In this document: positions 5,527-64,000 of the stretch, piece by piece
Layout: each line of letters starts with the position of its first letter
Numbering within the stretch: position 1 is the first letter of the stretch
Assembly: GCA_943354165.1 (NCBI GenBank)
Contig: CALRBH010000001.1
Location: forward strand, 80,828-144,827
Length of the DNA stretch: 64,000 nt
Source: Candidatus Uhrbacteria bacterium RIFOXYB12_FULL_58_10
GTDB taxonomy: Bacteria; Patescibacteriota; Patescibacteriia; UBA9934; GWF2-40-263
Direction of reading: 5' to 3'
The notes under the pieces: model-generated
Told to the model about the DNA's origin: nothing
Seen by the model: the letters and a program-made list of their open reading frames with translations, nothing else
Database searches by the model: none
Program-made: the position numbers and the translations under genes

Positions 5527-5589
5527 AACGTGGCCGATTGTAGCAGAGGAATGGAAAAAAACAAGAGAACGGGCTACCATCCGGTGGCT

Positions 5590-6030: not shown

Positions 6031-6113
6031 TTAGTAGTTAGTAGATAGTAGTTAGTAGAGTTGGTTGGAAAATTTTCCTACTTACTACTAACTACTTACT
6101 ACTAACTGCTAAC
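6028..6113. repeat. TAG-rich imperfect inverted repeat (GTTAGTAG units) forming a ~30-bp hairpin; an empty copy of the element that flanks the four-helix-bundle gene at 44784..45226
   Basis: TAGTTAGTAGATAGTAGTTAGTAG (identical 24-mer to 44791..44814), 19-nt spacer, then CTACTTACTACTAACTACTTACTACTAAC; starts at the smpB stop codon; stops in all three frames. Confidence 0.7.
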
Positions 6114-6127
6114 GCAGTTAGTCATAT

Positions 6128-15978: not shown

Positions 15979-18330
15979 ATGAGAAGTTTGTTTTTGCTGG
16001 TTTTGTTTGCCATGATGCCCGCCTGCGTCGGCTGCGACGACGGGGATGGCATTCCCACCGAGGACGACTGCGATCCGGAGACGTCGGGTGACAATCAGGT
16101 CATCTCACTCTGCGGATGTCCGGACAACCCTGCCAGCCCTCCGGGCTGTGCGGATAATTCGGGCGAAGGCGAAGGTGAGGGCGACGGTGAAGAAGGCGAA
16201 GGCGAAGGTGAGCCGCTGCAGGAGTGTGTGCTCAACACCGAATGCGACGACGGCGAAGAGTGCACCGATGGAGAGTGCATCCAGATTCCTGTGGAGCCAG
16301 TGTGTACGCCCGGCGAACGCCGGGTATGCAATACGGGTCTCGACGGCGTCTGCATCTTCGGCAGCCAGCGATGCAAGGAGGATGGATCGGACTTCGACAC
16401 ATGCGAAGTCGAGACGTCTCCTGGCGAGCTCGATGAAGTCTGTTTTGATGGCATCGACCAGGACTGCGACGGTCGCATCGACAATGGATGCGCCTGTCCG
16501 GCTGGAGAAGAAGCTGACTGTGTCCTCCCTGCGCTCGACGGCGAATGTCGCCGCGGACGTATGGTGTGCCTACCGGACGGCTCCGAGTTCGGCGAGTGCG
16601 AGCAGGTCACCTTCTTTCAAGAAGAGATCTGCTTAAACGGGTTTGATGAGACGTGCGATGGCACAGCCGACGAAAACTGCGTGTGCTTCCCTGGGCAAAC
16701 CCAGCCGTGCAATTCAGGGTTTGAAGGCGTGTGTGCCGCGGGCGTCCAAACGTGTTTGCCGGATGGTCTGGGGTTTGACTCCTGCCAACCGCTGATCGCG
16801 CCGTTTACGGAACCTGAGACTTGCGAGAACGGGGTCGATGAGGACTGCGACGGTCGTCCGGATTCCGGATGTACCTGTTCGCCTGATGAACGGGCCCTCT
16901 GTGTCGTAGTGAGCGAGGTCGGACCGTGTTCTGTTGGAGAGGCAGTATGTCTTCCCGACGGAAACGGCTTCGGCGCCTGCGTCCAGACGGTACTGCCCGC
17001 CGCAACGGATTCCTGCTTCAACCTGCGGGATGACGACTGCGACGGCACGGTGAACAACGGCTGCGCGTGTGAGGCAGGAACCAGCATCGTCTGCGACACA
17101 GCCCTCGAAGGGATCTGTGCCTCGGGCCTGCAAACCTGTCTTGCGGACGGCTCCGGGTTCGACATCTGTCGTCCCGTGATCCTTCCGTTCGCACAAGCTG
17201 ATACCTGTGGCAACGGCGTCGACGAGGACTGCGACGGGCTCCCGGACAACGGGTGCACCTGCGATCCCGGTGATCAAGTCGACTGCGTTGTGACGGGGCT
17301 CGAGGGCGCATGCAAGATCGGGAAGGCGACCTGTCCTTCTGACGGCAACGCGTTCGGTGCCTGTACACAGACGGTCTTCCCGGCGGCGCAGGATACCTGC
17401 ATCAATGGGATCGACGACGACTGCGATGCGGCGACGGATGAAACGTGCGTCTGCCAGCCGTTCACGTCCCGTCCTTGCGCCACTGGCTTGCCAGGGGTCT
17501 GCAATGGCGGAAGCGAAACGTGCCGCGCCGACGGAACTGGATTCAACGTGTGTCAGGTGCTCATCATTCCCGGAACCCAGGCGGAAACCTGTGGCAACGG
17601 GCTGGATGATAACTGCAACACGGCGGTTGATGACGGGTGCGTAGTGGGTGCGGGCGTCCCTGGGACGCTGGCCTTTGATGACGATGGTGACTGCGAGTGT
17701 GAGATCGTCGCAGGCATCTGCTCGGGGTCTATCAACCCCGTGTGCACGGCGGTTACGGCAGATGACTGCGATGACGCTGCGAGAGTCAAAAGCTCGCTCG
17801 CCAACGAAGTCTGCGGTGGTACGGAGGACTTCGACTGCGATGGCTCGATCGGTGCCGCCGATCCGGACAGCGTGGCGCAGTGTGTAGGAACAATCAGCGT
17901 GAGTTTCGCGGCAGGGAACTTCACAGCCGTGATGAACGGCAATGTGACGGGAACAACCTTGAGCGAGATGACGACAGGCGCGGCTACGCTTCTTGGAAAC
18001 GTTCTGTTCCTTGAAGTCGGTGCCAACTCCGCCGGCTGCAGCTTTGATGCGACGAGTTCGTGTGGGCAAGTGGCCTTCGATCCCCTCACGGATAACTTCG
18101 TCAACAAGGCTCTGGTGTTCGCTGGAGCGATCGGTATTCCGACAGACTTCACTCCGCGGGTGCAGACGAACCAGACGGTGGTGACTCCAGGTACAGGAGT
18201 CGTGGTGCCTGAAGGAGCGTTCATTGATCTCGCCCGTTGGGGGGTGATCAATGGAGCAGGAGGCAAAACCTGTGCCGTATTGCCCGGTGGTCCACTGGGT
18301 GCGGCTCTGACCACACACTGCACGCCGTAG
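15979..18330 (+). CDS. secreted/lipoprotein with seven ~64-aa 8-Cys tandem repeats of the C-x-N-G-x-D-(D/E)-D-C-D-G-x-x-D-x-G-C type (MopE/putative metal-binding-motif-like), (GE)n linkers and a C-terminal Cys-poor domain
   Basis: Start ATG 15979 behind GAGGAGGAG; MRSLFLLVLFAMMPACVGC lipobox-like; repeats e.g. ETCENGVDEDCDGRPDSGCTC x7. Confidence 0.7.
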   Translation: MRSLFLLVLFAMMPACVGCDDGDGIPTEDDCDPETSGDNQVISLCGCPDNPASPPGCADNSGEGEGEGDGEEGEGEGEPLQECVLNTECDDGEECTDGECIQIPVEPVCTPGERRVCNTGLDGVCIFGSQRCKEDGSDFDTCEVETSPGELDEVCFDGIDQDCDGRIDNGCACPAGEEADCVLPALDGECRRGRMVCLPDGSEFGECEQVTFFQEEICLNGFDETCDGTADENCVCFPGQTQPCNSGFEGVCAAGVQTCLPDGLGFDSCQPLIAPFTEPETCENGVDEDCDGRPDSGCTCSPDERALCVVVSEVGPCSVGEAVCLPDGNGFGACVQTVLPAATDSCFNLRDDDCDGTVNNGCACEAGTSIVCDTALEGICASGLQTCLADGSGFDICRPVILPFAQADTCGNGVDEDCDGLPDNGCTCDPGDQVDCVVTGLEGACKIGKATCPSDGNAFGACTQTVFPAAQDTCINGIDDDCDAATDETCVCQPFTSRPCATGLPGVCNGGSETCRADGTGFNVCQVLIIPGTQAETCGNGLDDNCNTAVDDGCVVGAGVPGTLAFDDDGDCECEIVAGICSGSINPVCTAVTADDCDDAARVKSSLANEVCGGTEDFDCDGSIGAADPDSVAQCVGTISVSFAAGNFTAVMNGNVTGTTLSEMTTGAATLLGNVLFLEVGANSAGCSFDATSSCGQVAFDPLTDNFVNKALVFAGAIGIPTDFTPRVQTNQTVVTPGTGVVVPEGAFIDLARWGVINGAGGKTCAVLPGGPLGAALTTHCTP

Positions 18331-19975: not shown

Positions 19976-21198
19976 CCGTCCTTCAAGCGCATAAATTTTA
20001 TTTTCCACGCGGCGGGGCGGAGACGTATCTCTTCGCGCTGTCCGAATATTTAGCGTCGCGCGGGTCAACGGTCGTTCCGTTCGCGATGCAACATCCGGGG
20101 AATCGGCAAACTCCATATTCGCACTATTTCCCTCGGTTCGTTCCTACGGAAAAAGTGAAGATGTCGCCGGCGGGATTGCGTACCGTAGGCCGGATGTTTT
20201 ATAGCTTCGAATCTAAGCGCCAGATGGAGCGATTGTTACGGGACGTCCCCATCGACGTCGCCCATATCCATAATCTGTACACGCAGCTGTCCCCATCGAT
20301 CCTTACTCCGCTCCGGAAGAGAAAGATTCCGACGGTGATGACGGTGCATGATTATCACCTGGTGACTCCGCACTATGCACTTCCGCTTGCCGGGCAGGCC
20401 GTGGACGTTTCTCGTGTGGGAGCATTGCGCGCGGCGCAGACGAAGTTTCATAAGGACTCAATGGCCGCAAGTTTTCTGCAAGCCGCATCTTATCGATTCA
20501 CCCGCCGCTGGAGATTTTATGATCGTGCCATTTCGCTCTTCATCGCTCCGAGTGAATTCATGGCGGCAAAACTGCGCGCGTCCGGATATGACAAGGATCG
20601 CATTCGCGTAATCCATTACGGCATCGACACGCGGACGATCGAACCTCGGTTCGGACACGATGGATATTTTCTGTTCGTCGGAAGGCTCTCGGAAGAGAAG
20701 GGGGTCGATACGGTGCTTGAGCTTGCGCATCGACTTCCGGATCTAAAGTTTAAGATTGTCGGGACCGGGCCAGATGAGGCGTTATTGCACTCCGTTGGCG
20801 ATCGACTTCCGAACGTCGAGTTCATGGGATACCAGCAAGGCCAGCGGTTGCGGGATCTGTACCTTGGTGCCCGGGCGGTATTAGTGCCTTCCAGGTGGGA
20901 GGAGCCTTCCGGTCTGGTTTTGCTTGAGGCCCAGGCCTGTGGAAAACCTGTGATTGCGAGCCATGCCGGTGGCATCCCGGAGGCCATGGAAGACCGCAGG
21001 AGCGGGTTTCTGGTCCCACCGCTTGATATCCACGCCTGGACCGAGGCCGTGCTGCGCCTCGCCTATGACGACCGGTCACGCGAAAAGATGGGCAGGGACG
21101 CCAGAACCCTTATGGAAGACCGGTTTTCGCTCAGGGCCCATTACGAGGCTGTGGAGCATGTTTATGCTGAGGCAATACGATTAGGGGGTAGTGCGTAG
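19972..21198 (+). CDS. glycosyltransferase family 4
   Basis: GT-B; C-terminal EPSGLVLLEAQACGKPVIASHAGGIPE (E-x7-E region). Confidence 0.85.
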   Translation: MTVLQAHKFYFPRGGAETYLFALSEYLASRGSTVVPFAMQHPGNRQTPYSHYFPRFVPTEKVKMSPAGLRTVGRMFYSFESKRQMERLLRDVPIDVAHIHNLYTQLSPSILTPLRKRKIPTVMTVHDYHLVTPHYALPLAGQAVDVSRVGALRAAQTKFHKDSMAASFLQAASYRFTRRWRFYDRAISLFIAPSEFMAAKLRASGYDKDRIRVIHYGIDTRTIEPRFGHDGYFLFVGRLSEEKGVDTVLELAHRLPDLKFKIVGTGPDEALLHSVGDRLPNVEFMGYQQGQRLRDLYLGARAVLVPSRWEEPSGLVLLEAQACGKPVIASHAGGIPEAMEDRRSGFLVPPLDIHAWTEAVLRLAYDDRSREKMGRDARTLMEDRFSLRAHYEAVEHVYAEAIRLGGSA

Positions 21199-21212
21199 TG
21201 TGTAGGGGGTAG
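21183..21212. repeat. stop-codon-rich GTAG motif GTAGTGCGTAGTGTGTAGGGGGTAGG overlapping the stop of the GT4 gene
   Basis: TAG in all three frames; shares the GCGTAGTGTGTA 12-mer with 33424..33448. Confidence 0.55.
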
Positions 21213-21253
21213 GAAAAAAGGGCTCTATTTAGCTAAATAACTGTTGAAATGGC

Positions 21254-22816: not shown

Positions 22817-22829
22817 AGGGTCTTTGTGG

Positions 22830-22868
22830 GGCTGTAAAGGCAGTAAGGGCTGTAAAGGCGGTAAGGGG
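22830..22868. repeat. tandem GGTAAGG/CCTTACC-type repeat upstream of the HTH gene
   Basis: GGCTGTAAAGGCAGTAAGGGCTGTAAAGGCGGTAAGGGG; related units at 30361..30405 and 63395..63500. Confidence 0.5.
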
Positions 22869-30351: not shown

Positions 30352-32403
30352 ATGCGTCGCCTTCTTACCCTTACCGCCCTTACAGCCATTACCGCCCTTA
30401 CCACCCAACCCGCACTCGCAGCCATCCCGAACGATCCTCTCATTGAACAGCAATGGTACCTGGCCAAGGTTCAGGCATTCAACGCATGGGACCACGGGAC
30501 GGGAACGGATGACGTCGTCGTTGCGGTGCTTGATACGGGTATTGATCTTGATCATCCGGATATAAAAGAGAATCTTTGGCGTAACGAAGGAGAGGTGAAA
30601 GGCGATGGGATCGATAATGATCAGAATGGTTTTGTTGACGATACGAACGGTTGGGATTTCATTGATGGGGACAACAGTCCGACTCCTTCCGCCGTGAACG
30701 CGCCGAGCGATGACGCGGTCGTGCATGGAACCGTCATTGCCGGAGTTATCGCCGCTGTTGGAAACAACGGGGAAGGGATCGCCGGGCTCAACTGGAAGGC
30801 GAAGATCATGCCGGTCCGCATCCTGGACCAATTCGGTTCCGGGACGAGCGAGGGAGCGCGTAAGGCCATCGAATACGCCGTGGCCAATCATGCCGACGTC
30901 ATTAATTTGAGTTTTACCGGATTCGAAGTCGACGAGGTCTTTAAGGACGTGGTTCACCGCGCGTACCAGGCAGGGGTGATTGTTGTTGCGGCTGTGGGGA
31001 ATAAAAGCGGCGGGGGAGTGAACCTGGACGAGACACCCGTGTATCCGGCCTGCTTCATGGGACTCGATGGGGACTGGGTGCTCGGTGTCGCCGCGACCAC
31101 TCGTCAGGACACCAAGGCTGGATTTTCAAACTACGGTTCGACCTGTACGGACATCAGTGCACCTGGGATCGAAGTGTTTGGCACGTCTTTTCAGGATCCG
31201 ACGGTAAACGGGTTTGGCCAGGCTTATCTTGGCGGATGGGCAGGTACATCGATTGCGTCTCCGATGGTGGCTGGCGCGGCTGCGCTGCTTAAGGCCAAGT
31301 ATCCGTTCATCACGCCAACGCAGGTAAAAACTGCATTGCAGCTTTCCGTGGATCCGCTTGCGGAAGTTGGGACGCCTGCCGCGGGGAAACTCGGTGCGGG
31401 TCGGCTGAACGTTGCTCGGGCGTTTGAGGTCGCGGGACAGTTTACGTTTGGGACGTCTTTGCCGATTCCTTCAGGACCCGCACCGGCAGTTCTCCCACCC
31501 CCTCCAACTCCCCCTCCGGGAGGGGGAGGGTTCGAGTCTGTTCGGATCGTCCTTGCGGCTGGGCCGGGTGCTGCGCCTCGAGTTCAGGTTTTTGATGAAG
31601 GCGGGCATGCGTCTGCATCGTTCTTGGCGTATGCCGAGGCGTTTAAGGGCGGCGTGCGCGTTGCGGCTGGCGATGTGGATGGGGACGGCGTCATGGAAAT
31701 CATCACGGTGCCCGGGCCAGGTGGCGGTCCGCACGTGCGTATCTTCACTCTTTCTGGCACGGTGAAAGGACAGTTTTTTGCCGGGGACAAGGCTGACCGG
31801 CGCGGATTAAACGTGTCGGTTGCGGATGTGGACGGCGATTTGAAATGGGAGATTATCACCAGCACGGAAGTGGGCGGGCTTGGGGAGGTGAACGTCTTTA
31901 CCATGGACGGAACTCGGCTTTCGAGCTTCAAACCGTTTCCAGGATCCAAGGAAGCGATTCGTGCGACGGGCGTGGACGCGGATGGAGATCGGCGAGATGA
32001 GATTGCCGTAGCGCTCGGCGCCGGGGCGAAACCGGAAGTGCGATTGTTTAGTTCCACCGGTTCGCTGAAGAAGAGTTTTCTTGCATATGGGGCAGGGTTC
32101 CTTGGCGGGATCTATTTGACTGCCGCGGATCTCGATGCAGACGGCAGCGAGGAAATCGTTGCGGGAACCGGGACTGGAGGAGGACCGCAGGTGCGGACGT
32201 TCACCGGCAAGGGTGCCGTCGTGGATTCTTTCTTCGCCTTTGACGCCACGCACCGCAAAGGGGTGATGGTCGCGGGGGCGGGCACGTTCCTTGTGGCCCT
32301 TGAAGGAAGCAGCGGAGCTGTGAAGCTCCTGAATCGCAAGGGACAGACCATGGGCGGATTCGATGTCCTCCCGGGCAATTATTCATTAGCTGTCCTTGAA
32401 TAA
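30352..32403 (+). CDS. secreted subtilisin-like serine protease (S8) with C-terminal FG-GAP/VCBS-like beta-propeller repeats
   Basis: Triad motifs VLDTGIDLDHPD, HGTVIAGVIAA, GTSIASPMVAGAAALL; repeats AAGDVDGDGVMEII, TAADLDADGSEEIV; the signal peptide is encoded by the CCCTTACC repeat; TATAAT 9 nt before the ATG. Confidence 0.85.
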   Translation: MRRLLTLTALTAITALTTQPALAAIPNDPLIEQQWYLAKVQAFNAWDHGTGTDDVVVAVLDTGIDLDHPDIKENLWRNEGEVKGDGIDNDQNGFVDDTNGWDFIDGDNSPTPSAVNAPSDDAVVHGTVIAGVIAAVGNNGEGIAGLNWKAKIMPVRILDQFGSGTSEGARKAIEYAVANHADVINLSFTGFEVDEVFKDVVHRAYQAGVIVVAAVGNKSGGGVNLDETPVYPACFMGLDGDWVLGVAATTRQDTKAGFSNYGSTCTDISAPGIEVFGTSFQDPTVNGFGQAYLGGWAGTSIASPMVAGAAALLKAKYPFITPTQVKTALQLSVDPLAEVGTPAAGKLGAGRLNVARAFEVAGQFTFGTSLPIPSGPAPAVLPPPPTPPPGGGGFESVRIVLAAGPGAAPRVQVFDEGGHASASFLAYAEAFKGGVRVAAGDVDGDGVMEIITVPGPGGGPHVRIFTLSGTVKGQFFAGDKADRRGLNVSVADVDGDLKWEIITSTEVGGLGEVNVFTMDGTRLSSFKPFPGSKEAIRATGVDADGDRRDEIAVALGAGAKPEVRLFSSTGSLKKSFLAYGAGFLGGIYLTAADLDADGSEEIVAGTGTGGGPQVRTFTGKGAVVDSFFAFDATHRKGVMVAGAGTFLVALEGSSGAVKLLNRKGQTMGGFDVLPGNYSLAVLE

Positions 32404-34477: not shown

Positions 34478-35546
34478 GGTTTCCATCGTCTACCTTTCGT
34501 ACAACTCCGTCCCGTATCTCCCGGACGTCGTGGACGCATGGGTAAAGATCGACTATCCGCGCGAGTCTCTTGAAATCGTGATCGTCGATAATGCGTCGGC
34601 CGACGGGAGCGTGGCGTGGATTCAGGAACATGTTCTTCCTCGGTCCGGTGCAGGTCTTCCCTCAATCATCTTTTTTTCACAGAAGGAGAACCTCGGATTT
34701 GCGGGTGGGTGCAATATTGGGATGGAGTACGCCATAGCGAACGGCGCTTCGTACGTCTATTTGCACAACAACGACTTGAAGCTCGATTCGGCTTCCATGA
34801 AGGAAGCGGTTTCACTCGCGGAATCAGATGCGTCCATCGGGTCCGTGCAGTCGCTCATGTGCCTGTGGCAGGATCCCTTGCGGGTTAATTCGACGGGAGG
34901 CATGGTGCACTTTCTTGGATTCGGGTTTGTGCGCGACAACGGACGGCTGCTTGCTGACTGTTCCGTTACGGATGGCGGGGAGATCGCGTACGGAAGTGGG
35001 GCAGCGACGCTCTACCGCTCTTCGTGTTTGAAAGAAGTTGGCCTGCTCGATTCGTTCTTGTGGCTCTATCACGAAGATTTGGAACTTGGCTGGCGCTTGC
35101 GGTTGGCCGGATTCAAGAACGTGCTTTCGACGAAATCGATCGCGTACCACAAGTACGAATTTCGTCGATCGACTTCGAAGATTTTTTGGATGGAGCGCAA
35201 CCGACTGCTCGTTCATCTTTCGCTATTGAAGCCTGGAACGATTATTTTGCTTGCGCCGTTTCTTTTGGCGCTTGAACCGGCTCTCATTCTGTTTTCCATC
35301 AAGGGCGGATGGTGGAAAGAAAAGTTCCGCGCGCTCGCGGCATTTTTCTCGCCGAAGCTCTGGACGTACCTGTACGAAAAACGAAAAGAAGCCCGGATGC
35401 TGCGTCGGGTGTCCGACCGAGAGATTGTAAGGATGTGGACGGGGAAGATCGTTCATCAGGAAACCTCGAATCCGCTAGTGGACCGGTTCGCGAATCCGGT
35501 GCTTGGTGGCGTCTGGGAGGTTTTGAAGAACCTGATAGTATGGTGA
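34467..35546 (+). CDS. glycosyltransferase family 2
   Basis: Start MSPKVSIVYLSYNS (overlaps the upstream stop); IVDNASADGS; NLGFAGGCNIG. Confidence 0.8.
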   Translation: MSPKVSIVYLSYNSVPYLPDVVDAWVKIDYPRESLEIVIVDNASADGSVAWIQEHVLPRSGAGLPSIIFFSQKENLGFAGGCNIGMEYAIANGASYVYLHNNDLKLDSASMKEAVSLAESDASIGSVQSLMCLWQDPLRVNSTGGMVHFLGFGFVRDNGRLLADCSVTDGGEIAYGSGAATLYRSSCLKEVGLLDSFLWLYHEDLELGWRLRLAGFKNVLSTKSIAYHKYEFRRSTSKIFWMERNRLLVHLSLLKPGTIILLAPFLLALEPALILFSIKGGWWKEKFRALAAFFSPKLWTYLYEKRKEARMLRRVSDREIVRMWTGKIVHQETSNPLVDRFANPVLGGVWEVLKNLIVW

Positions 35547-35565
35547 GATTGTAGATGTTTAGAGT

Positions 35566-35655
35566 GGGCAGGGTTTGCAGGGTGGGCAAGGGTGTAGGAA
35601 ATTTTTATAAAAAGCCATTCCATCACCCCGCCCATCCTTGCCCACCCCACAAACC
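35566..35655. repeat. long imperfect hairpin with G-tract-rich arm (GGGcaGGGtttgcaGGGtGGGcaaGGG), potential G-quadruplex / i-motif pair
   Basis: Left arm GGGTTTGCAGGGTGGGCAAGG, right arm CCTTGCCCACCCCACAAACCC; between two GT genes. Confidence 0.5.
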
Positions 35656-35666
35656 CCTCGATTCCT

Positions 35667-36845
35667 ATGAAAATCGCCCAGGTCGTCTCAACATATCCTC
35701 CCTATCATGGCGGCATGGGCCGTGTGGCGTTTGAATATACGGAACGTTTGCGGGCACACGGGAACAATGTCCACGTGTTCACGCCGCAGTATCGGAATGG
35801 TGGAGACCCCACTTCGCCAAGGCTTCGAGGGGCAGGAGATCCGGAGTATGTTCATCGCGTGCCGTCCCCGCTTACGGCGGGGAATGCGGGCGTAGTGCCG
35901 TCGCTTTTCAACCGCATGAAAGGGTTCGATGTCGTGCATCTCCATTATCCTTTTTTTGGCGGGGCCGAACCCGTTATTATTCGGAAAGCAATACGGGACG
36001 ATCAGGCGCTCGTGATGACCTATCACATGGACGCCGTGGCAGATGGCGTGCGCGGCGCCATATTTGAAGCGCATCGCCGACTGTTGTTTCCGTGGATCGT
36101 CGGACGCTGCGATCGCATCCTCGTAAGTTCCAAGGAGTATGCGCAGTCCTCTTCGCTCTCTCGCGTGCACGGAGCGCTTGAGAAGGTGGAGATCCATCCG
36201 TTCGGGATCGACCTGCAGCGATTCTCTCCCGGGAGCGAACCGGAGTTGCGCGCGCAGCTCGGGATCACGGAAGCGGTTCCTCTGATTATTTTTGTCGGCG
36301 GGTTGGATACGGCACATCACTTTAAAGGATTACCCGTGCTGCTTAAGGCTCTTGAAACTCTTTCTGCGACGAAGTGGCATCTTCTTGTGATCGGTGACGG
36401 GGACATGCAGCCTACGTTTCAGGCGAACGTGTCTGCTGGCGCCATCAAGGATCGCGTGACGTTTCTTGGAAACGTGACGGACGAGGAGCTTCCGCGCTGG
36501 TACCGTGCGGCGGACCTTCACGTGTTTCCGTCCACGGAGCGCGCAGAGGCGTTCGGGCTCGTGGCGCTCGAGGCCGCCGCGTCCGGCATTCCGTCCATCG
36601 CGTCCGCGCTTCCCGGCGTTGCTTCCGTCGTACTCGATGGAGAGACGGGGATGCTTGTCCCCCCAAACGATGCGACCGCGCTCGCGAAGGCGATCGAACT
36701 TCTGTTGCTTCGGGCCGACGTGCGCGAACGTTTCGGCATGGCCGCGCGCAAACGCGCGGAAGCGGATTTCGCGTGGGGGCCGATCATTTCGAAGCTTGAA
36801 GGGACCTACCGCTCGCTGCTCGCTACACGAACCATGCGCGTATGA
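35667..36845 (+). CDS. glycosyltransferase family 4
   Basis: MKIAQVVSTYPPYHGGMGRVAFEY; C-terminal EAFGLVALEAAASGIPSIAS. Confidence 0.85.
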   Translation: MKIAQVVSTYPPYHGGMGRVAFEYTERLRAHGNNVHVFTPQYRNGGDPTSPRLRGAGDPEYVHRVPSPLTAGNAGVVPSLFNRMKGFDVVHLHYPFFGGAEPVIIRKAIRDDQALVMTYHMDAVADGVRGAIFEAHRRLLFPWIVGRCDRILVSSKEYAQSSSLSRVHGALEKVEIHPFGIDLQRFSPGSEPELRAQLGITEAVPLIIFVGGLDTAHHFKGLPVLLKALETLSATKWHLLVIGDGDMQPTFQANVSAGAIKDRVTFLGNVTDEELPRWYRAADLHVFPSTERAEAFGLVALEAAASGIPSIASALPGVASVVLDGETGMLVPPNDATALAKAIELLLLRADVRERFGMAARKRAEADFAWGPIISKLEGTYRSLLATRTMRV

Positions 36846-41470: not shown

Positions 41471-43124
41471 CAAGCCGGCCGCAACGGCTCTTGTCGTTTG
41501 CGTGGCCATCGTCGCGCTGCTCGGTTCTTTTTCGCTGTTTACGAACGAGCGCACGTTCGTCTCTCCGGATGAAAATGCCAATTATTTTTTTACACACACC
41601 TTTTTTCAGACGGGGAGGCTTTCCGCTCATGAGTCGCTGGGCGCGGACTTGGACGATGCCTTGCATCCACGTTCCATGGTTTCGCGTGAAGGGTCCCTCA
41701 TGCCCGTAAGTTTTCTTGGATTGCTCGTCACGTATGGTGCGGTCGCCAAGCTTTTTGGAATGGGGATCGTGCCTTTTCTTACACCCTTTCTGTTTGTGTG
41801 CTCCATTTTTGCGTTCCGTGCGCTCATGAACCGCCTGTTCGACCGGGATACGGCGCTCGTGGCCACTGTGTTGTATGCGTTCCATCCAGCCATGTGGTAT
41901 TACGCCGCCCGCGCGATGATGCATAACGTGCCATTTACCGTGCTCCTCGTGTTCGCGGCGTACGTGCTCGTGTGCAAGCCGTTCGCCCATAAGTTTTCCA
42001 AGGATCGTTTCGCGGCCTTTGCGGACGCTGGACTTTCTGGCCTGCTGGTGGGAACGGCGCTTTTTTTCCGTACGTCCGAGATCATCTGGATGTTTCTCGC
42101 GGTCGTCGTCGCGCTTGTCGCGTCACGCGTGCGGTTTACGTCGCGTCGCGTAGTGGTATTTGTCTTCGGCGTTGTTCTCGGCCTCGTTCCCATGCTGTTC
42201 TTCAACGCCTCCACCTACGGATCCCCGTTTACGTTCGGGTATACCGTGACTCCGCTTTCCGGCAGCTCGAACCCCCTCCAACTCCCCCTCCGAGAGGGGG
42301 AGGGTTCGATGGCGATGCCTGAGGTGGATCCGCCGGAACGGATCGGGGCGTTTCCGTTTGGCCTCCACCCGCGTGCAACGCTTGTGCATCTTTCGGAATA
42401 TGGATTCGGGCTGTTTTGGTGGCTCACGATCCTCGCGGCCGGCGGGATGATCATCTTGCTGCAGTCGCGTGACGCATCGCCTGAGCAGAATCAGCTGCGC
42501 AAGGCGTACGGCGCGTTCTTTATCGTCTCGGCCGGCTATCTCGCGCTCATGTATGGGAGTTGGACCATCCGGGACAATCCGGACCCCACGGCCATCACCA
42601 TCGGCAATTCCTACGTGCGCTACTGGCTGCCGGCGTACGTGTTGTCCGTTCCGCTCGCGGCCGTCTGCATCATGTGGATTTCCCGGCGACTGCTCACTCC
42701 TGCGCGCCGAGCGCTTGTGGCGAGCGCTCTTACGCTCATGTGCGTAGCCCTCAGTGTCGCTACGGTGTTTTACACGAAAGGCGATGGGCTGATCGACGCG
42801 CGGAAGACGCTCGCGGAAACCGCTTCCATCCGTGGGCAGCTGCTCAACCTCACGGAATCCGATTCGGTGATCATCGCGGACCGGGCGGACAAGTTCCTGT
42901 TTCCGTACCGACGGGTCGTGACGCCGTTGCGCGATGAGCACACATACTCGCTCATGCCGCGCATCGTCCTGCGCGTTCCGCTCTACTATTACGGCGTGAC
43001 GTTCCCGGAGAAGGACTTGGAATACTTGAACACCGAAAAGCTTCCGCCCCTCGGGCTGCAGATTGAGGAGCTTCGATCGTTCAAGGCGGAAACGCTTTAC
43101 CGCATTTATCGCTTGCCTTCATGA
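41460..43124 (+). CDS. GT-C fold glycosyltransferase (ArnT/PMT-like, family 39/83-type)
   Basis: ~11 TM; first periplasmic loop SPDENANYF (DE motif); overlaps the upstream stop. Confidence 0.6.
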   Translation: MGFSKPAATALVVCVAIVALLGSFSLFTNERTFVSPDENANYFFTHTFFQTGRLSAHESLGADLDDALHPRSMVSREGSLMPVSFLGLLVTYGAVAKLFGMGIVPFLTPFLFVCSIFAFRALMNRLFDRDTALVATVLYAFHPAMWYYAARAMMHNVPFTVLLVFAAYVLVCKPFAHKFSKDRFAAFADAGLSGLLVGTALFFRTSEIIWMFLAVVVALVASRVRFTSRRVVVFVFGVVLGLVPMLFFNASTYGSPFTFGYTVTPLSGSSNPLQLPLREGEGSMAMPEVDPPERIGAFPFGLHPRATLVHLSEYGFGLFWWLTILAAGGMIILLQSRDASPEQNQLRKAYGAFFIVSAGYLALMYGSWTIRDNPDPTAITIGNSYVRYWLPAYVLSVPLAAVCIMWISRRLLTPARRALVASALTLMCVALSVATVFYTKGDGLIDARKTLAETASIRGQLLNLTESDSVIIADRADKFLFPYRRVVTPLRDEHTYSLMPRIVLRVPLYYYGVTFPEKDLEYLNTEKLPPLGLQIEELRSFKAETLYRIYRLPS

Positions 43125-44596
43125 AGTCCATCCGTGCGATTCAGGCTTTGATCATTCTTGTCCCCGTCATCCTGTTCGGCTGGCTGCTTTGGCAGGAGCT
43201 CGTCCCGACGGGCACGTTTATCATGGAGCGAGTCGCAGGAACGGCCTCGCCGTTTATTGATCGATTGCTTCCGGACGGACGCGTGCAGCTCGCTGATCCT
43301 CATTCCGCTCGTCCTACGGATACCATCACGGGCGACCCTGCGTTCTTTTTCGTCCATCCGCACCGCGGATTTGAATCCGGCGAGGTGGAAATTCGTTTTC
43401 AGAATACGGGCGTGCCCATCGTTGAGTTTGGTGGACTGGCGCGCGAAGAAGGACAGGTCTATGACCTCACGCCCATTCAGAACCGGCTGATCGACACCTC
43501 CACATGGACGCGTCATGAAGAACAAGGAATCACTCTTCTTGAGCGCGAGCCGAAGTTCGCGACGATCGCTGATTTTCTTGCGAACCCTCCGCCGCGCCAT
43601 GAGATTTCCACCTATCACTATCGACTCGCCCGCGCGTACCGGATGCCCGGGTATGTCGCACAAGGAGGCACCAGGAACATCGACGTTTCTTTGCGCGGAT
43701 TTCATGAATTCGAAACGTACCTGAAGAACGAGCCGCTTTCGTTCACGTTTTCTTATACGGATGAGAACCGCGGGGAAGGGCCGGACCCGTTTGAGGTGAT
43801 CGTCTTCAATGAGAACAACGAAGCCGTGACGGACGTCCATGTGGCGGATGACGGAAATACAGGCGATGATGCGCGGCCTTCCAGAATACGCACCGCGACC
43901 GTTTCGCTCGCATTGGTTCCGGAAGGGACGTACAAACTTGAGATACGGGTTGGCACGGACATTTTTTTGAGATCGATTCAGACAAGCGCGAACAAGCTCG
44001 TCGCGATGAACACCATCATTCTCGGAGATGAGGTTGGCTACAAGCCCGTGCCGTCGAGCGTGCGGATGTGGACGGAGTCGAAGACGCTCGCGTTTGAGAC
44101 GACGCACGCGGAAGGGGTGCAGTCGGTGGAGGTTGGGGCGAACGCCGTTGCTCTCGCGACGCCATTTACGCGCGTGGAATACGACGTGAAGGAATCCGGC
44201 GTCGTGCGCATTACGGTTCCGAAGGGCGATGCGCGCGTGTTCGGCGACGGACATTATGCGTTTGCCCCGGACCAGTTTTTCAATCCGGATCCTGTACGTC
44301 TGAACGCCACCACGAATCTTGATCGGCTCGGGGTAAACTATGTCATCGCCGCCTATACTCCGCCTGTGAAGGACCCTTCGACAAGCTCAGGGCAGGGAGG
44401 GGAATGGCTCGTGGCGCGCGTTCCGTTTAACACAGAAGGACTCGTTCAACTGAACGGCACCTGGAAATTTGCGTTCTCGCTTCCGGGAATCGAGCGGACA
44501 GGCGGCGCGGTGAACGTCCGATCCGTCTCGTTCACCATGCACCGGGCTCCTCTCACCATCTCTGTATTGATGACCCTGATCCGTTCGCGCTTATGA
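43121..44596 (+). CDS. hypothetical membrane-anchored extracytoplasmic protein
   Basis: N-terminal TM ALIILVPVILFGWLLW; 450-aa beta-rich ectodomain; translationally coupled to the GT-C. Confidence 0.5.
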   Translation: MKSIRAIQALIILVPVILFGWLLWQELVPTGTFIMERVAGTASPFIDRLLPDGRVQLADPHSARPTDTITGDPAFFFVHPHRGFESGEVEIRFQNTGVPIVEFGGLAREEGQVYDLTPIQNRLIDTSTWTRHEEQGITLLEREPKFATIADFLANPPPRHEISTYHYRLARAYRMPGYVAQGGTRNIDVSLRGFHEFETYLKNEPLSFTFSYTDENRGEGPDPFEVIVFNENNEAVTDVHVADDGNTGDDARPSRIRTATVSLALVPEGTYKLEIRVGTDIFLRSIQTSANKLVAMNTIILGDEVGYKPVPSSVRMWTESKTLAFETTHAEGVQSVEVGANAVALATPFTRVEYDVKESGVVRITVPKGDARVFGDGHYAFAPDQFFNPDPVRLNATTNLDRLGVNYVIAAYTPPVKDPSTSSGQGGEWLVARVPFNTEGLVQLNGTWKFAFSLPGIERTGGAVNVRSVSFTMHRAPLTISVLMTLIRSRL

Positions 44597-44793
44597 AACC
44601 GTTCACGCTTCGTCTCATCGCTACGTTGTTCCGCGTAAGTGCCCTCTCGTACGTTTTATTCTGGGCGGCAGATGCGATGAGGCCAGGGTTTGTGTCACGA
44701 TACGTCTCCGTCCACTTGTTCGGGTTGCTTGCGCTTGTGTTCGGAACCCTTTTTGCGGTATATGGAGAGGACGTTGGGGGTCGTAGTAAGTAG
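44593..44793 (+). CDS. small 2-TM membrane protein
   Basis: 66 aa, overlapping start with the upstream gene. Confidence 0.4.
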   Translation: MKPFTLRLIATLFRVSALSYVLFWAADAMRPGFVSRYVSVHLFGLLALVFGTLFAVYGEDVGGRSK

Positions 44794-45226
44794 TTAGTAG
44801 ATAGTAGTTAGTAGGTATGGATGATGATTTGCGCAGGGATAAACGTTCATATAAAGATTTGACGGTTTGGCAGAAGTCCATGGATTTGGTTGTGCTTATC
44901 TACGAACTGACAAAAGATTTTCCTGCCGATCAGAAATTTAGTCTTGTGAATCAGATGCAGCGTGCGGCTGTCTCTGTGCCGTTGAATATCGCGGAAGGTT
45001 CACGTAGACGAAGTGAAGCAGATAATATTCGTTTTCTCCGCATCGCGTTTGGATCAGCGTCTGAACTCGAAACCCAGATCCTTATCTCTCAACGTCTCCG
45101 GTTCGGTCATTCTGAGAAATATTCAGGCATAAAAAGCTTGCTTATAGAGGTTCTCAAGATGCTAAACAAAATGTCAGAATGACCGTAACCCTACTTTCTA
45201 CTTACTACTATCTTCTAACTACACCC
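44784..45226 (+). mobile_element. cassette: four-helix-bundle (23S rRNA IVS protein) gene bracketed by TAG-rich imperfect inverted repeats, inserted exactly between two host genes
   Basis: Left arm GTAGTAAGTAGTTAGTAGATAGTAGTTAGTAGG overlaps the upstream stop codon; right arm CCCTACTTTCTACTTACTACTATCTTCTAACTACACCC ends 2 nt before the HIT ATG; 24-nt core identical to 6031..6054. Confidence 0.6.
44817..45182 (+). CDS. four helix bundle protein (TIGR02436; 23S rRNA-intervening-sequence protein family)
   Basis: 121 aa; YKDLTVWQKSMDLVVLIYELTKDFPADQKFSLVNQMQRAAVSVPLNIAEG... typical of the family. Confidence 0.85.
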   Translation: MDDDLRRDKRSYKDLTVWQKSMDLVVLIYELTKDFPADQKFSLVNQMQRAAVSVPLNIAEGSRRRSEADNIRFLRIAFGSASELETQILISQRLRFGHSEKYSGIKSLLIEVLKMLNKMSE

Positions 45227-45228
45227 AT

Positions 45229-45645
45229 ATGTCTGACTGTATTTTCTGTAAAATCATTGCGGGGGACATTCCTGCCATAAAGATTCATGAGGACGAGCAG
45301 TGCATTGCATTTCTCGATATCCATCCAGTGAACCCTGGGCACACGCTGATCGTTCCGAAGGAACACCATGCAAATTTTCTTGAGACGCCTAAGGAACTCG
45401 TGGCGGTGATCATGGCGCTCGGACAGAAGCTTTCGCCGGCCATCCTTAAAGCCGTCGGTTCCGATTCGTTTAATTTTTCTACGAACAACGGCCGCGCAGC
45501 AGGACAGTTGATTGCTCATACGCATTTTCACCTGATCCCGCGCTTTCCGGCAGACGGCCATAAGATGTGGCATGGGTCTGACGAGCATCAGGATTTTGCG
45601 GCGATGGCCACGAAGATTCGAGAGGCAGTAGGCAGTGGGGAGTAG
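45229..45645 (+). CDS. HIT family hydrolase
   Basis: CIFCKIIAGDIPA; HTHFHLIPR histidine triad. Confidence 0.9.
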   Translation: MSDCIFCKIIAGDIPAIKIHEDEQCIAFLDIHPVNPGHTLIVPKEHHANFLETPKELVAVIMALGQKLSPAILKAVGSDSFNFSTNNGRAAGQLIAHTHFHLIPRFPADGHKMWHGSDEHQDFAAMATKIREAVGSGE

Positions 45646-45654
45646 GAAGTAGAT

Positions 45655-62439: not shown

Positions 62440-63399
62440 ATGAAGCTCTCGCCTATTGCGATCTTGGTTGCAATTTGCGTGAGCCTCGCCGCTCTTGCGG
62501 TTTGGGCCATGCCTCAAGTGGAGCCGCGCTGGGGCGTGACGTTTTCCACCAAGTATTCTCGCGAGCTCGGGTTGAATCCGGAAACCGTGTTTTGGGAGGT
62601 GGTGAACGACCTGAACGTCCGTGCAATCCGGTTGCCCGTGTATTGGGATGAGGTGAATCCACAATTCGACGTTTGGAATTGGCAGCCGTACGACCATCTG
62701 GTTGAAATGGCCGATGAGAAGGGGGTCGCCCTCACGCTTGCGGTGGGAATGAAGACGCCGCGCTGGCCGGAATGCCATGTTCCAGAATGGGCCGCCTCCA
62801 TTTCCTCCATCGATTCATTCGACAAGCAGCGATCCGCCTACATCGATGCGGTTATTAAACGATACGACGGACACGTCTCCGTGGAGCGGTATCAGATCGA
62901 GAATGAGCCGTTGTTTCCGTTTGGTGAGTGTCCGGGTTCCAGCATCGAGCGGCTGGAAGAAGAAGTGCATCGTGCGAGGCTTGTGACGACGAAGCCAATA
63001 CAAATCACGGCGAGCGGAGAATTCGAGCTCTGGAGCCGTGTGGCCCCTCTTGTCGATGTCCTTGGCGTTTCCCTTTATCGCATTTCCTGGAACGATGCAT
63101 ACGGTTTTTTTCGCTATCCCATTCCCGCCGCGTATTACCGATTACGGGCTATGGGTATCCAGCGTCCGGTTATTATTTCCGAGCTTCAGGCCGAGCCGTG
63201 GTTTCCCGTCTCCATTGAGAGTCACCCCGCCTCTTATTGGGCGCAGCTGTTCACGTCCAATGATTTCCGCGACCAGGTCCGCTTTGCCCGCCGGACCGGA
63301 TTGTCCGAAGCGTATCTTTGGGGGGTGGAGTGGTGGTACTATTTGCGTGCTCACGGATATCCAGAGCTTTGGGACGCTGCGCGTCCTCTTTGGCGGTAA
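62440..63399 (+). CDS. secreted TIM-barrel glycoside hydrolase (GH5/GH113/PslG-like)
   Basis: Signal/TM anchor; conserved ENEP (acid/base) and SELQAEPW (nucleophile) typical of clan GH-A. Confidence 0.55.
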   Translation: MKLSPIAILVAICVSLAALAVWAMPQVEPRWGVTFSTKYSRELGLNPETVFWEVVNDLNVRAIRLPVYWDEVNPQFDVWNWQPYDHLVEMADEKGVALTLAVGMKTPRWPECHVPEWAASISSIDSFDKQRSAYIDAVIKRYDGHVSVERYQIENEPLFPFGECPGSSIERLEEEVHRARLVTTKPIQITASGEFELWSRVAPLVDVLGVSLYRISWNDAYGFFRYPIPAAYYRLRAMGIQRPVIISELQAEPWFPVSIESHPASYWAQLFTSNDFRDQVRFARRTGLSEAYLWGVEWWYYLRAHGYPELWDAARPLWR

Positions 63400-63500
63400 G
63401 GGCGGTTAGGGTTGTAAGGGGAGTAAGGGATTTTCCTTTCGCTCTATTCGTTCTGTCGCCCTTACCGTCCATTACCACCCTTACAACCCTTACCACCCAA
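63395..63500. repeat. inverted repeat of GGTAAGGG/CCCTTACC units (G-quadruplex-capable left arm) between the GH gene stop and the next gene
   Basis: GGTAAGGGCGGTTAGGGTTGTAAGGGGAGTAAGGG ... CCCTTACCGTCCATTACCACCCTTACAACCCTTACCACCCAAC; shares CCCTTACCACCCAAC with 30391..30405. Confidence 0.55.
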
Positions 63501-63515
63501 CGATCCCACGAATCT

Positions 63516-64000
63516 ATGCCCAACAAAGAAATCGTTTTAGATATCGAAACCGCTAACACCTTTCAAGAGGTCGGCTCTTATGATCATACCAAGCTTGTCA
63601 TGTCCGTTTGCGGCGTCTATTTCTACGAAACAGACGAATACCGGGCGTATGAGCTCCATGAGATGAAGGATCTTTGGCCCCGGCTTGAAAGCTGTGATCG
63701 CATCATCGGCTACAACACCATCGGGTTCGATATGCCCGTCATGAATAACTATTATCCGGGGGATCTTCTTAAGCTCAATCAACTTGATATTCTGGCCGAG
63801 ATCCAAAAAGCCCTTGGGTTCCGTTTGAAACTCGATGACGTTGCCGCGGCTTCGCTTGGTCACGGAAAAACGGGCCATGGGCTCCAGGCGGTTGAGTGGT
63901 GGAAGCAGGGGGAGAAGGAAAAGGTGAAGACCTACTGCCTCGATGACGTCCGGGTGACCAAGGAACTGTACGAATACGGCCTGAAATACAACGCGGTCGC
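63516..64000 (+). CDS. DEDD/RNase H-fold 3'-5' exonuclease-like protein (partial, runs off the window)
   Basis: LDIETANTF (Exo I D-x-E), YNTIGFDMPVM (Exo II), CLDDVRVTKELY (Exo III Y-x3-D region). Confidence 0.5.
   Translation, partial: MPNKEIVLDIETANTFQEVGSYDHTKLVMSVCGVYFYETDEYRAYELHEMKDLWPRLESCDRIIGYNTIGFDMPVMNNYYPGDLLKLNQLDILAEIQKALGFRLKLDDVAAASLGHGKTGHGLQAVEWWKQGEKEKVKTYCLDDVRVTKELYEYGLKYNAV

Follow-up and report, generated by a model that had tools for sequence, protein, structure and literature searches.

What are the 9-nt repeats that fill the junction between a GH-like gene and an exonuclease gene at 63.4 kb of the analysed stretch of DNA (64 kb, below called the window), and which other repeats do they belong with? 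A sequence-only reading of the window had described them as a repeat family at three gene 5' ends. The family is real, dispersed and tied to gene boundaries, and all four reported sites exist, but not all of them are 5' ends: the elements at 63.4 and 35.6 kb span whole stop-to-start junctions, while those at 22.8 kb (5' UTR) and 30.4 kb (coding) are lone C-rich arms. This Uhrbacteria-like Patescibacteria genome has a class of stem-loop elements with repeat arms, to which the CCCTTACC/GGTAAGGG units contribute one family. Two points had been overlooked: the 9-mer is one of several 7- and 9-nt unit families with a common stop-to-start hairpin architecture, and a 23S-rRNA-IVS-protein cassette has arrays of the heptamer family as its terminal inverted repeats. 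The explanation favoured here, with about even confidence, is that of IVS-like, repeat-armed stem-loops within operon transcripts, which are probably of selfish origin and probably mark sites of double-stranded RNA processing or stability.

The hairpin at the GH-like gene/exonuclease junction

The following parts were delimited:
63391-63508, plus strand: hairpin element at the GH-like gene/exonuclease junction
63392-63431, plus strand: G-rich 5' arm, about 4.2 units of GGNNGTAAG (TRF, pattern search)
63432-63458, plus strand: T/C-rich hairpin loop (folding, promoter scan)
63459-63508, plus strand: C-rich 3' arm, about 4.3 units of CCCTTACCN, with terminal CCCTTACCACCCAAC (TRF, folding)

The inverted repeat previously proposed at 63395-63500 was confirmed, since 63391-63508 folds into a stem of about 35 bp at -47.4 kcal/mol (z = -3.7). 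The TAA stop codon of the upstream GH-like gene (63397-63399) lies within unit 1 of the G arm, in which TAG or TAA recurs in frame every 9 nt, and the stem base ends 8 nt upstream of the exonuclease ATG at 63516. Within each unit two bases vary and frequently fail to pair, which leaves the 9-mer stems as 7-13 bp helices broken by small internal loops; no compensatory covariation that would show selection on pairing was found in them. The junction scan gave no promoter-like site in the loop, and neither promoter-like nor terminator-like sites were detected in either 9-mer junction (63300-63600 and 35480-35720). With Rfam, only tmRNA and one tRNA were found in the window at the gathering score, and no family matched the hairpin, for which only sub-threshold matches to generic long hairpins (miRNA precursors) were obtained at E ≤ 1. 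Among 80 Patescibacteria loci compared for synteny, the GH and exonuclease genes are neighbours only in this organism, so that there is no orthologous spacer to compare.

Other copies of the 9-nt unit

The heptanucleotide CCCTTAC occurs 12 times in the window compared to 3.6 expected, a count never reached in shuffles. The three-unit pattern CCCTTACNNCCCTTACNNCCCTTAC was found eight times with up to 3 mismatches (none expected by chance in the window), and all matches are confined to four arms (pattern search):
22829-22867, minus strand
30359-30401
63396-63429, minus strand
63469-63493

Tandem arrays of period 9 were identified by TRF at 22829-22867, 30368-30406, 63392-63429 and 63459-63498 (4.2-4.3 copies) and at 35564-35594 (3.3 copies). 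A 15-mer reported as shared between two arms is exact, but is located at 30395-30409 and 63487-63501 rather than at 30391 and 63486. One shared 15-mer alone is at chance level (4-15 such pairs per resampled window), and it becomes meaningful because the C arms align in register.

Outside the 63.4 kb junction, the 9-nt arrays of the window are:
22829-22867, minus strand: lone C-rich arm of 4.3 units, CCCTTACCG/CCTTTACAG, in the 5' UTR of an HTH_17 gene (TRF)
30361-30409, plus strand: lone C-rich arm within the coding sequence of an S8 protease, where LTLTALTAITALTTQ is encoded as the hydrophobic core of the signal peptide
35562-35664, plus strand: hairpin of the same build with another unit, comprising a G arm of 3.3 units of GTGGGCAGG (35564-35594), an AT-rich loop and a C arm (approx. 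35620-35660)

The HTH_17 gene starts with an ATG at 22816-22814, and a promoter-like site (22919-22890) is located upstream of its C arm. Lone arms, including this one, do not fold on their own, and any role of theirs can therefore not be that of the hairpin. The 35.6 kb element, located between a GT2 stop codon (35544-46) and a GT4 ATG (35667), reaches -47 kcal/mol (z = -3.6); its unit is GTGGGCAGG and not GGTAAGGG.

The repeat within the S8 protease gene had been correctly translated as MRRLLTLTALTAITALTTQPALAAIPNDP, and the suggestion that a repeat was taken up into coding sequence is borne out by this one copy, which lies in frame in the signal peptide. It shares both the register and the terminal CCCTTACCACCCAAC of the other C arms. 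The closest N-terminus found, that of P0127, reads MRRLL[FFLVTAGILIG]QPVFAAVPNDP compared to MRRLL[TLTALTAITALTT]QPALAAIPNDP in the window (core in brackets): the residues flanking the core match, and the hydrophobic core alone is replaced. The S8 homologues listed have ordinary hydrophobic cores without the repeat. Judged by sequence, this copy is a true family member that substitutes the hydrophobic core only.

A second 9-mer hairpin of the same organism is located between two ribonucleotide-reductase genes (locus L001, 10738-10864; -53 kcal/mol, z = -4.7). The 63.4 kb hairpin recurs in a separate Logan assembly of read set SRR7054680 (L001), which carries identical contigs and the sample of which may be the same as that of the window assembly. 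A metagenome scan for CCCTTACNNCCCTTAC gave at least 120 stretches; no further family members were found among the matches listed, nearly all of which were single chance matches or antisense Gly-Lys-Gly-type (collagen-like) coding repeats in unrelated GC contexts. Ungapped hairpins of at least 22 pairs are rare in the other 80 loci, and none of them has the GGTAAGGG unit.

Heptamer elements and the PF05635 cassette

Four heptamer elements were found in the window:
6024-6119, plus strand: hairpin of GTAGTTA x4.6 (6027-6058) and CTACTAA x5.1 (6078-6113) (TRF, folding)
21182-21213, plus strand: lone G-rich array, TAGGGGG/TAGTGCG x4.6, which spans the TAG stop (21196-98) of a GT4 gene and has a canonical terminator after it
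44783-45222, plus strand: IVS-like cassette with a GTAGTTA-type G arm (44783-44814), a PF05635 gene (44817-45182) and a CTACTAA-type C arm (45191-45222)
45623-45652, plus strand: lone G-rich array, AGGCAGT-type x4.3, across the stop codon of the HIT gene (TAG 45643-45)

The first of these fills the spacer between smpB, whose TAG stop (6028-6030) lies in unit 1, and tmRNA, whose 5' end is at 6128; it folds at -46.9 kcal/mol (z = -7.6). Arrays of this kind lead to spurious or extended ORF calls, for example a false 'ORF' over the tmRNA. In the cassette, the G arm holds the TAG stop of a small ORF (44593-44793), the C arm directly precedes the ATG of the HIT gene at 45229, and both arms are 92% complementary over 25 nt, their terminal stem being present in the MFE structure. 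An identical 25-mer is common to the smpB-tmRNA hairpin, which contains no ORF, and an arm of the PF05635 cassette. The array across the HIT gene stop provides the SD-like sequence of the next gene (ATG 45655).

Complementary flanks bracket PF05635 genes in seven other Patescibacteria contexts, one of them between pheS and pheT. A G-rich arm bearing TAG or TAA upstream and a C-rich arm bearing CTA or TTA downstream were found as in the window at L209, L210, L214 and L217, the TAGTTA/CTACTAA heptamer pattern being clearest in L209, L210 and L217. TAGTTA-type arms surround PF05635 genes across genomes with 57-89% identity in that protein, the strain with the 89% identical protein being that of SRR22000213. 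The stem-loop elements are read as ORF-less relatives of the cassette at 44783-45222, in which similar arms enclose a PF05635 gene. The loops of the 9-mer hairpins are 27-57 nt long and none holds a PF05635 gene, so that the link of this family to the IVS-type cassettes is one of shared architecture only.

Placement, polarity and comparison with relatives

In a full element, 4-5 units of 7 or 9 nt, all of them with TAG or TAA, make up a G/T-rich array, which is followed by a loop of 20-60 nt and a complementary C-rich array. The three hairpins of the window have similar energies (about -47 kcal/mol, z = -3.6 to -7.6) and each fills the exact stop-to-start spacer; the arm length is approx. 30-36 nt across hairpins at -47 to -53 kcal/mol. 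In 9 of 9 arrays the polarity is the same, with the stop-bearing G arm after a gene and the C arm before a gene in sense orientation, the minus-strand HTH gene included. Plausible operon partners flank the hairpins (smpB-tmRNA, GT2-GT4 and the two ribonucleotide-reductase genes). Pairing of a 5' C arm with a 3' G arm across each gene was rejected as a general rule, as the HTH and S8 genes are without a 3' G arm; genes that do follow it are a UDP-glucose dehydrogenase gene in L036 and, with the arm order reversed, the PF05635 gene.

In two relatives with 73% identical SmpB, the smpB-tmRNA spacer is 0-9 nt long, and in a relative at 71% SmpB identity an unrelated 125-nt hairpin (-70 kcal/mol) is located at the same position. 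As these relatives lack the hairpin or have a different one, the elements are lineage-specific insertions. In a strain from SRR22388311 with 99% identical SmpB (aligned part), GTAGTCA replaces GTAGTTA and the contig breaks within the array; assemblies are broken by these arrays. An unrelated 45-nt palindrome is common to two coding regions. Neither an RNase III gene (rnc) nor a transposase, RAYT or other mobilising enzyme was found among the approx. 50 ORFs scanned in the 64 kb window.

Possible origin and role of the elements

In the favoured explanation, the elements would be selfish insertions that enter gene junctions, where their stop-rich units would cut short read-through in the host frame. 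We infer that they are mobile, transcribed as part of operon mRNAs and cleaved there: the RNA stem of about 30-36 bp would be a double-strand-specific processing or stability site, for which RNase III is the obvious candidate nuclease, as with the stems of 23S rRNA IVSs. Processing of the stem might separate the flanking cistrons or free the tmRNA from the smpB transcript. Lone arms would be half-elements, one C arm of which was apparently absorbed in frame into the S8 signal peptide.

It is unlikely that the elements are purely DNA-level selfish palindromes of the REP or MITE type, for which RNA structure would be irrelevant; the hairpin would then be the substrate of a hairpin-recognising transposase or a product of replication, and junctions would be the only tolerated sites. 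The dispersed copies with an identical 25-mer at two loci, the presence, absence and replacement of elements at one junction among relatives, the contigs that end within arrays and the second, unrelated palindrome in two coding regions are in line with such an origin. The strict sense polarity is unexpected for a symmetric palindrome inserted randomly, no transposase or RAYT gene was found in the window and no target-site duplication, which a MITE would have besides its terminal inverted repeats, can be recognised, the inverted arms being repetitive.

It is improbable that the arrays serve as binding sites of the ribosome or of a protein that binds single-stranded nucleic acid. In that case, the array rich in C and poor in G would be an unstructured leader for SD-free initiation, masked by the G arm until the stem is opened by the ribosome on the upstream gene (translational coupling). 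C arms stop 5-20 nt upstream of start codons, the upstream stop codon lies within the stem base, one lone C arm is part of a 5' UTR and another lies at the 5' end of what is probably a leaderless mRNA, and heptamer repeats just upstream of starts in place of an RBS have been described (MacGregor 2015, PMC4679880). The genes following C arms are all without SD; however, this absence is not special, as an SD sequence is present in only 14 of the 52 window genes, and the organism appears to rely largely on leaderless, SD-free initiation. Moreover, one hairpin precedes tmRNA, for which no start codon is used in translation, several different units would require several binders, and relatives do without the element at the same junction.

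Neutral by-products of replication slippage, i.e. 7-9 nt simple-sequence repeats of a small genome with neither function nor mobility, are a rather improbable explanation. Slippage would account for the differences between close strains, both in unit sequence (GTAGTTA or GTAGTCA) and in unit number (4.6 or about 8), and arrays of period 5-11 are common (0.52 per 10 kb across 86 Patescibacteria loci); heptamers are the commonest class of long SSRs in prokaryotes according to Mrazek 2007, as quoted in PMC4679880. It would not, however, put a complementary array 20-60 nt downstream, duplicate a 25-mer together with its variant unit at another locus, preserve the TAGTTA-type arms of PF05635 genes whose proteins share only 57-89% identity between genomes or impose one polarity on all nine arrays.

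Intrinsic, possibly bidirectional, transcription terminators would fit strong stems directly after stop codons, but are very improbable, as no T tract follows the stems, the terminator scan was empty, the genome's own terminators elsewhere in the window are canonical (GC stem and T run), and the stems lie between functionally linked genes. G-quadruplex-forming regulatory elements, emphasised by the sequence-only reading, are just as hard to credit: the G3N1-7 consensus is indeed matched at 63400-63429 and 35566-35592, but G4Hunter gives no more than 1.56, a score of at least 1.5 is reached by 23 regions of the 56% GC window, the hairpin remains the MFE structure when G-quadruplexes are allowed (-47 kcal/mol compared to -13 to -15 kcal/mol for isolated G arms), and the sister families GTAGTTA and AGGCAGT have the same architecture without G tracts.

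A bolder reading, which we regard as quite improbable, takes the arrays for the cis-acting sites of post-transcriptional 'punctuation' throughout the genome, in a system tied to the PF05635 (IVP/Avd-like) protein. In the one solved structure cited in PMC4990558 this protein is a homopentamer, and each subunit would correspond to one of the 4-5 tandem units of 7-9 nt. If the stems were bound, or cut by RNase III, operon transcripts would become monocistronic RNAs with very short leaders, which would suit leaderless, SD-free initiation. ORF-less hairpins such as that at 63391-63508 would then be regulated in trans and would not be junk.

The data suggest that IVS-type cassettes with stop-bearing tandem-repeat arms are found between ordinary genes, even between pheS and pheT, and that they leave behind ORF-less hairpins and half-arms, which can turn into leader or coding sequence. 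To our knowledge, no function or mobility mechanism of PF05635 'IVS proteins' and IVS stems has become known in more than 30 years, and we know of hardly any work on gene regulation in Patescibacteria. The elements thereby offer a specific model of how operon RNA may be processed in this group, and one that can be put to the test.

Comparison with known systems

Several identities were considered and rejected. TIGR-Tas arrays contain many 36-nt units (edge repeat, spacer A, loop repeat, spacer B) beside a Nop-domain Tas gene; the arrays described here have 4-5 units of 7-9 nt, no variable spacers and no Nop-domain protein. For integron attC sites, the RYYYAAC consensus is matched by ACCCAAC, but at the wrong end, and GTTRRRY is not matched by GTTAGGG; the flanks are housekeeping genes, and no integrase is present. 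A DGR was rejected as well, as PF05635 is Avd-like but no reverse transcriptase is encoded nearby.

REP/BIME sequences of enterobacteria and pseudomonads are dispersed imperfect palindromes in intercistronic operon spacers, which stabilise mRNA 3' ends, carry a conserved GTAG head and are mobilised by RAYT transposases. The elements resemble them as dispersed palindromes in intercistronic spacers, but REPs are not built of tandem 7-9 nt units, and no RAYT was found among the window ORFs scanned. Rickettsia palindromic elements (RPE) are non-coding repeats inserted in frame in protein genes. The S8 copy is similar in that a dispersed non-coding repeat, absent from the homologues listed, is translated in frame within the host protein as its signal-peptide core. 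It differs in being one arm only, which replaces a segment of similar length (+2 aa) and adds no new one.

TAACTGA heptamers of Beggiatoaceae, Cyanobacteria and Bacteroidetes form sets of 2-6 units just upstream of SD-less gene starts, with occasional copies inside ORFs and 169 direct sets versus 1 indirect (PMC4679880). They are thus nearly all direct and unpartnered, whereas the paired inverted array is the defining feature here. A TCAGTTA/TAACTGA hairpin was observed in one Patescibacteria locus (L069).

Cyanobacterial STRR, for example in the hupS/hupL spacer, are tandem repeats of about 7 bp that form hairpins between co-transcribed genes, and transcript stability or translational coupling has been proposed for them (PMC2670836). 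Paired tandem arrays in spacers are found here as well (TRF periods 7 and 9, 3.3-5.1 copies), but in another phylum, with other unit sequences, 9-nt units in addition, built-in stops, strict polarity and PF05635 cassettes.

In Coxiella burnetii, the 23S IVS is considered to be selfish; RNase III cuts its 28-bp terminal stem, and tandem heptamer repeats of strain-variable copy number precede the S23p start (PMC4990558). Terminal inverted repeats, a stem of approx. 25-30 bp, an optionally enclosed PF05635 ORF (here in the heptamer cassette) and a 5' arm of tandem heptamers with variable copy number between strains are shared with the elements of this study. In contrast to 23S IVSs, the latter are located between protein genes or smpB and tmRNA and not within 23S rRNA, no rRNA being encoded in the window, and most copies are without an ORF: PF05635 is present in the heptamer cassette 44783-45222 and absent from all 9-mer hairpins, and the 63.4 kb family has 9-nt G/C-rich units. 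Cutting of the stem by RNase III is known for the 23S IVS and is proposed for the elements described here. Altogether, the elements are a variant of two known kinds of hairpin, those of the IVS and of the cyanobacterial STRR.

CCCTTAC repeat family

The source genome belongs to Uhrbacteria-related Patescibacteria; its SmpB and GH-like protein are 65-73% and 35-44% identical, respectively, to those of such MAGs. The repeat family that the sequence-only reading had proposed for gene 5' ends is real, and its sequences are present at their sites as described. The window (56% GC) contains 12 copies of CCCTTAC compared to 3.6 expected, and the observed number was attained in none of the shuffles. 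A three-unit pattern, searched with up to 3 mismatches, gave 8 matches, all inside four arms, with 0 expected. The following period-9 arrays were identified with TRF:

22829-22867, about 4.3 copies
30368-30406, about 4.3 copies
63392-63429, about 4.3 copies
63459-63498, about 4.3 copies
35564-35594, 3.3 copies of a different unit, GTGGGCAGG

The shared 15-mer pointed out earlier is an exact match (30395-30409 and 63487-63501), but as a lone pair it is at chance level in 64 kb (4-15 such pairs per resampled window). Kinship of the four C-rich arms is established instead by their in-register alignment and the common terminus ...CCCTTACCACCC(A/C)A.

Hairpins between stop and start codons

While the repeat family was recognized in the sequence-only reading, the main point, a repeat-armed hairpin reaching from stop to start codon and apparently related to the cassettes of 23S rRNA intervening sequences (IVSs), fell outside it. 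Two hairpins and two lone arms without a fold of their own were found:

63391-63508, 9-mer hairpin separating a GH-like gene from an RNase_H_2-type exonuclease gene (predicted -47.4 kcal/mol, z = -3.7)
35562-35664, hairpin built alike from a different unit, flanked by a GT2 and a GT4 gene (-47 kcal/mol, z = -3.6)
22829-22867, minus strand, lone C-rich arm that follows a TTGACG-18-TACACT site and belongs to the 5' UTR of an HTH_17 gene
30361-30409, lone C-rich arm within the S8 protease gene

The 5' (G) arm of 63391-63508 consists of four GGNNGTAAG units, the first of which contains the TAA (63397-99) of the GH-like gene, and an in-frame TAG/TAA is repeated every 9 nt. The 3' (C) arm is the complementary CCCTTACCN array, and the predicted stem closes 8 nt upstream of the next ATG. 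This hairpin is also present in L001, assembled separately by Logan from read set SRR7054680, and is thus unlikely to be an artefact of one assembler. L001 contains a second, GGTAAGGG/CCCTTACC hairpin (-53.2 kcal/mol, z = -4.7) between two ribonucleotide-reductase genes, about 2.7 kb past the window end.

In almost all N-termini of S8 homologues inspected, a signal peptide of about 20 aa is followed by ..A-x-(T/V/I)-P-(N/D)-D-P. The window protease (MRRLL-TLTALTAITALTT-QPALAAIPNDPLIEQQWYL) differs from the closest N-terminus, that of homologue P0127 (MRRLL-FFLVTAGILIG-QPVFAAVPNDPLIEQQWYL), only in the hydrophobic core, which is unusually Thr-rich. The core DNA is a bona fide C arm of the 9-mer family, open in all three frames. 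The previously suggested coding exaptation is plausible, and the arrangement fits capture or replacement of the core by a half-element. A TATAAT ends 9 nt upstream of the ATG, so the S8 mRNA is probably leaderless. Upstream of the ATGs at 53, 10591, 18425, 30352, 32421, 33459 and 55769 there are -10-like boxes (TATACT, TATAAT, TACAAT, TACACT), in many cases following GG or TG, whose distance to the start codon is about 12 nt or less (mostly 7-12 nt); the organism seems to use leaderless initiation commonly. The S8 protease gene has a GC-rich palindrome of about 45 nt (ACCCCCTCCAACTCCCCCTCCGGGAGGGGGAGGGTTCGA) in common with an unrelated ORF of 554 aa (31485-31536, 42260-42311); this element is translated in different reading frames (..PPPPTPPPGGGGFES.. 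vs ..NPLQLPLREGEGSM..) and may represent a second dispersed palindrome family within coding sequence.

Heptamer arrays and array polarity

Heptamer arrays in the window are laid out like the 9-mer arrays (TRF). GTAGTTA (x4.6) and CTACTAA (x5.1) form a predicted hairpin (-46.9 kcal/mol, z = -7.6) spanning the interval from the smpB stop, a TAG located in the first unit, to 9 nt short of the 5' end of tmRNA (6128-6528, Rfam). Since tmRNA occupies this position, a 122-aa "ORF" at 6126-6494 is spurious. The 309-aa ORF at 5101-6030 is an over-extended smpB (homologues have about 146 aa) overlapping infC on the opposite strand (4975-5580). Two lone G-rich heptamer arrays each span a stop codon:

21182-21213
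45623-45652

In 9 of 9 arrays or array pairs, including that of the minus-strand HTH gene, a stop-bearing G/T-rich arm follows a gene and a C-rich arm precedes one in sense orientation (p ~0.002 under random orientation, assuming independent placements). L082, a GC-rich relative, has sense-orientation C-rich arrays directly upstream of starts at 227-255 and 7869-7897 (GCCTTCATC x3.2 before a DAGK gene; CAACCCC x4, minus strand, before SD and ATG), which agrees with the polarity in the window. In-frame hexamer and nonamer repeats (GAAGGA, GGCGAA, CCCAAGAAG) in large function-unassigned ORFs (15192-15269, 16162-16211, 12689-12733) encode low-complexity stretches of protein and have no relation to the junction arrays.

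Cassettes with PF05635 genes

The genes for PF05635 "23S rRNA intervening sequence protein" (IVP) of the window and seven further Patescibacteria contexts were compared:

Window, 44817-45182, bracketed by GTAGTTA/CTACTAA-type arms
L209, protein 89% identical, synteny as in the window
L210, methyltransferase / IVP / solute-binding protein
L214, RmuC / IVP / YqeY
L217, 2451-2934, pheS / IVP / pheT, heptamer-periodic arms
L218 and L220, complementary flanks
L060, tRNA / IVP / rpmG

pheS and pheT are normally adjacent. The window arms (25 nt, 92% complementary) form the terminal stem in both MFE and centroid structures, and an identical 25-mer is common to them and the arms of the smpB-tmRNA hairpin. 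Complementary flanks were found in 7/7 further contexts (duplex z = -2.2 to -5.2). In L209, L210, L214, L217 and the window, the upstream arm is G-rich with TAG/TAA and the downstream arm C-rich with CTA/TTA; L209, L210 and L217 show the TAGTTA/CTACTAA pattern most clearly. The stop of the upstream gene sometimes lies within the arm. A hydrophobic 66-aa ORF (44593-44793), likewise called in Logan contig L208, has its start overlapping the upstream stop (ATGA), and its own stop is a TAG in the G arm of the window cassette.

In the 23S IVS of Coxiella burnetii, the classic element with a PF05635 gene, RNase III cuts a 28-bp terminal stem, and tandem heptamer repeats, strain-variable in copy number, precede the ORF start (PMC4990558). 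Because of this similarity and the complementary PF05635 flanks, the description that best fits the heptamer hairpins is that of IVS-type cassettes and their ORF-less derivatives, situated in mRNA junctions rather than rRNA. The 9-mer family has every architectural feature in common with them, and we infer that it belongs to the same class; no 9-mer array with a PF05635 gene was found among the window and the contexts examined.

Occurrence in relatives

In two genomes with 73% identical SmpB, the smpB-tmRNA spacer has 0-9 nt and no hairpin. In L086 (71% identical SmpB), the interval from the smpB stop to the tmRNA 5' end is exactly filled by a 125-nt hairpin (3215-3355, -70 kcal/mol, z = -8.5) that is non-periodic and unrelated; different stem-loops have independently entered this junction. 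A strain with 99% identical SmpB (aligned part) has GTAGTCA in place of GTAGTTA units, and nucleotide identity falls toward the smpB 3' end. Its contig L087 ends within the array (2271-2299); when such genomes are assembled from short reads, tandem arrays may cause fragmentation. Because the spacer of relatives contains no element, another hairpin or altered units, sequence comparison indicates lineage-specific insertions with units changing in concert, not conserved operon parts.

The density of period 5-11 arrays is 0.52 per 10 kb over 86 Patescibacteria loci, compared with 1.56 per 10 kb in the window. Several of these loci have heptamer-armed hairpins (including L004, L009, L016, L043 and L069), and low-complexity ATTAG/CTAAT hairpins are present in L036, where the hairpin arms also flank a UDP-glucose dehydrogenase gene. 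The GGTAAGGG unit is absent from the hairpins of the compared loci, these six among them. A hairpin in L069 (5286-5370) with TCAGTTA x5 and TAACTGA-like arms adjoins tRNA-like sequence and, read by eye, probably lies between two tRNA genes. TAACTGA is the heptamer that has been reported in high abundance ahead of start codons in Beggiatoaceae, Cyanobacteria and Bacteroidetes (PMC4679880).

Possible function and alternatives

The elements might be transcribed inside operon RNAs as stem-loops serving as double-strand-specific processing or stability sites, with RNase III as the obvious candidate, and might spread as selfish insertions whose stop-rich units curb read-through out of the upstream gene; we give this account about an even chance. 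When a 7-nt unit carries one TAG, a stop occurs in every frame within 21 nt.

A selfish palindrome acting only as DNA is improbable, as the polarity speaks against it. To the same degree we doubt that the arrays bind a protein or the ribosome or provide translational coupling, as proposed for TAACTGA repeats (PMC4679880), a reading weakened by the tmRNA case and by SD-like motifs in only 14/52 window genes. Neutral slippage, slightly less probable still, leaves the paired inverted arms, the dispersed 25-mer and the conserved PF05635 flanks unexplained. Terminators are very improbable, since scans of the two junctions (63300-63600 and 35480-35720) revealed no promoter-like or terminator-like site, while canonical terminators with GC stem and T-run are in use elsewhere in the window; the G-quadruplexes of the sequence-only reading are unsupported and equally improbable.

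Comparison with known systems

Full-text literature searches found neither such arrays nor the arms of PF05635 cassettes described for Patescibacteria, and Rfam contains no family matching the repeat-armed hairpin. The closest known systems are 23S rRNA IVSs, the cyanobacterial STRR hairpins between hupS and hupL (PMC2670836), TAACTGA arrays (PMC4679880), REP/BIME and Rickettsia palindromic elements (RPE). The putative half-element capture in the S8 gene is comparable in kind to RPE.
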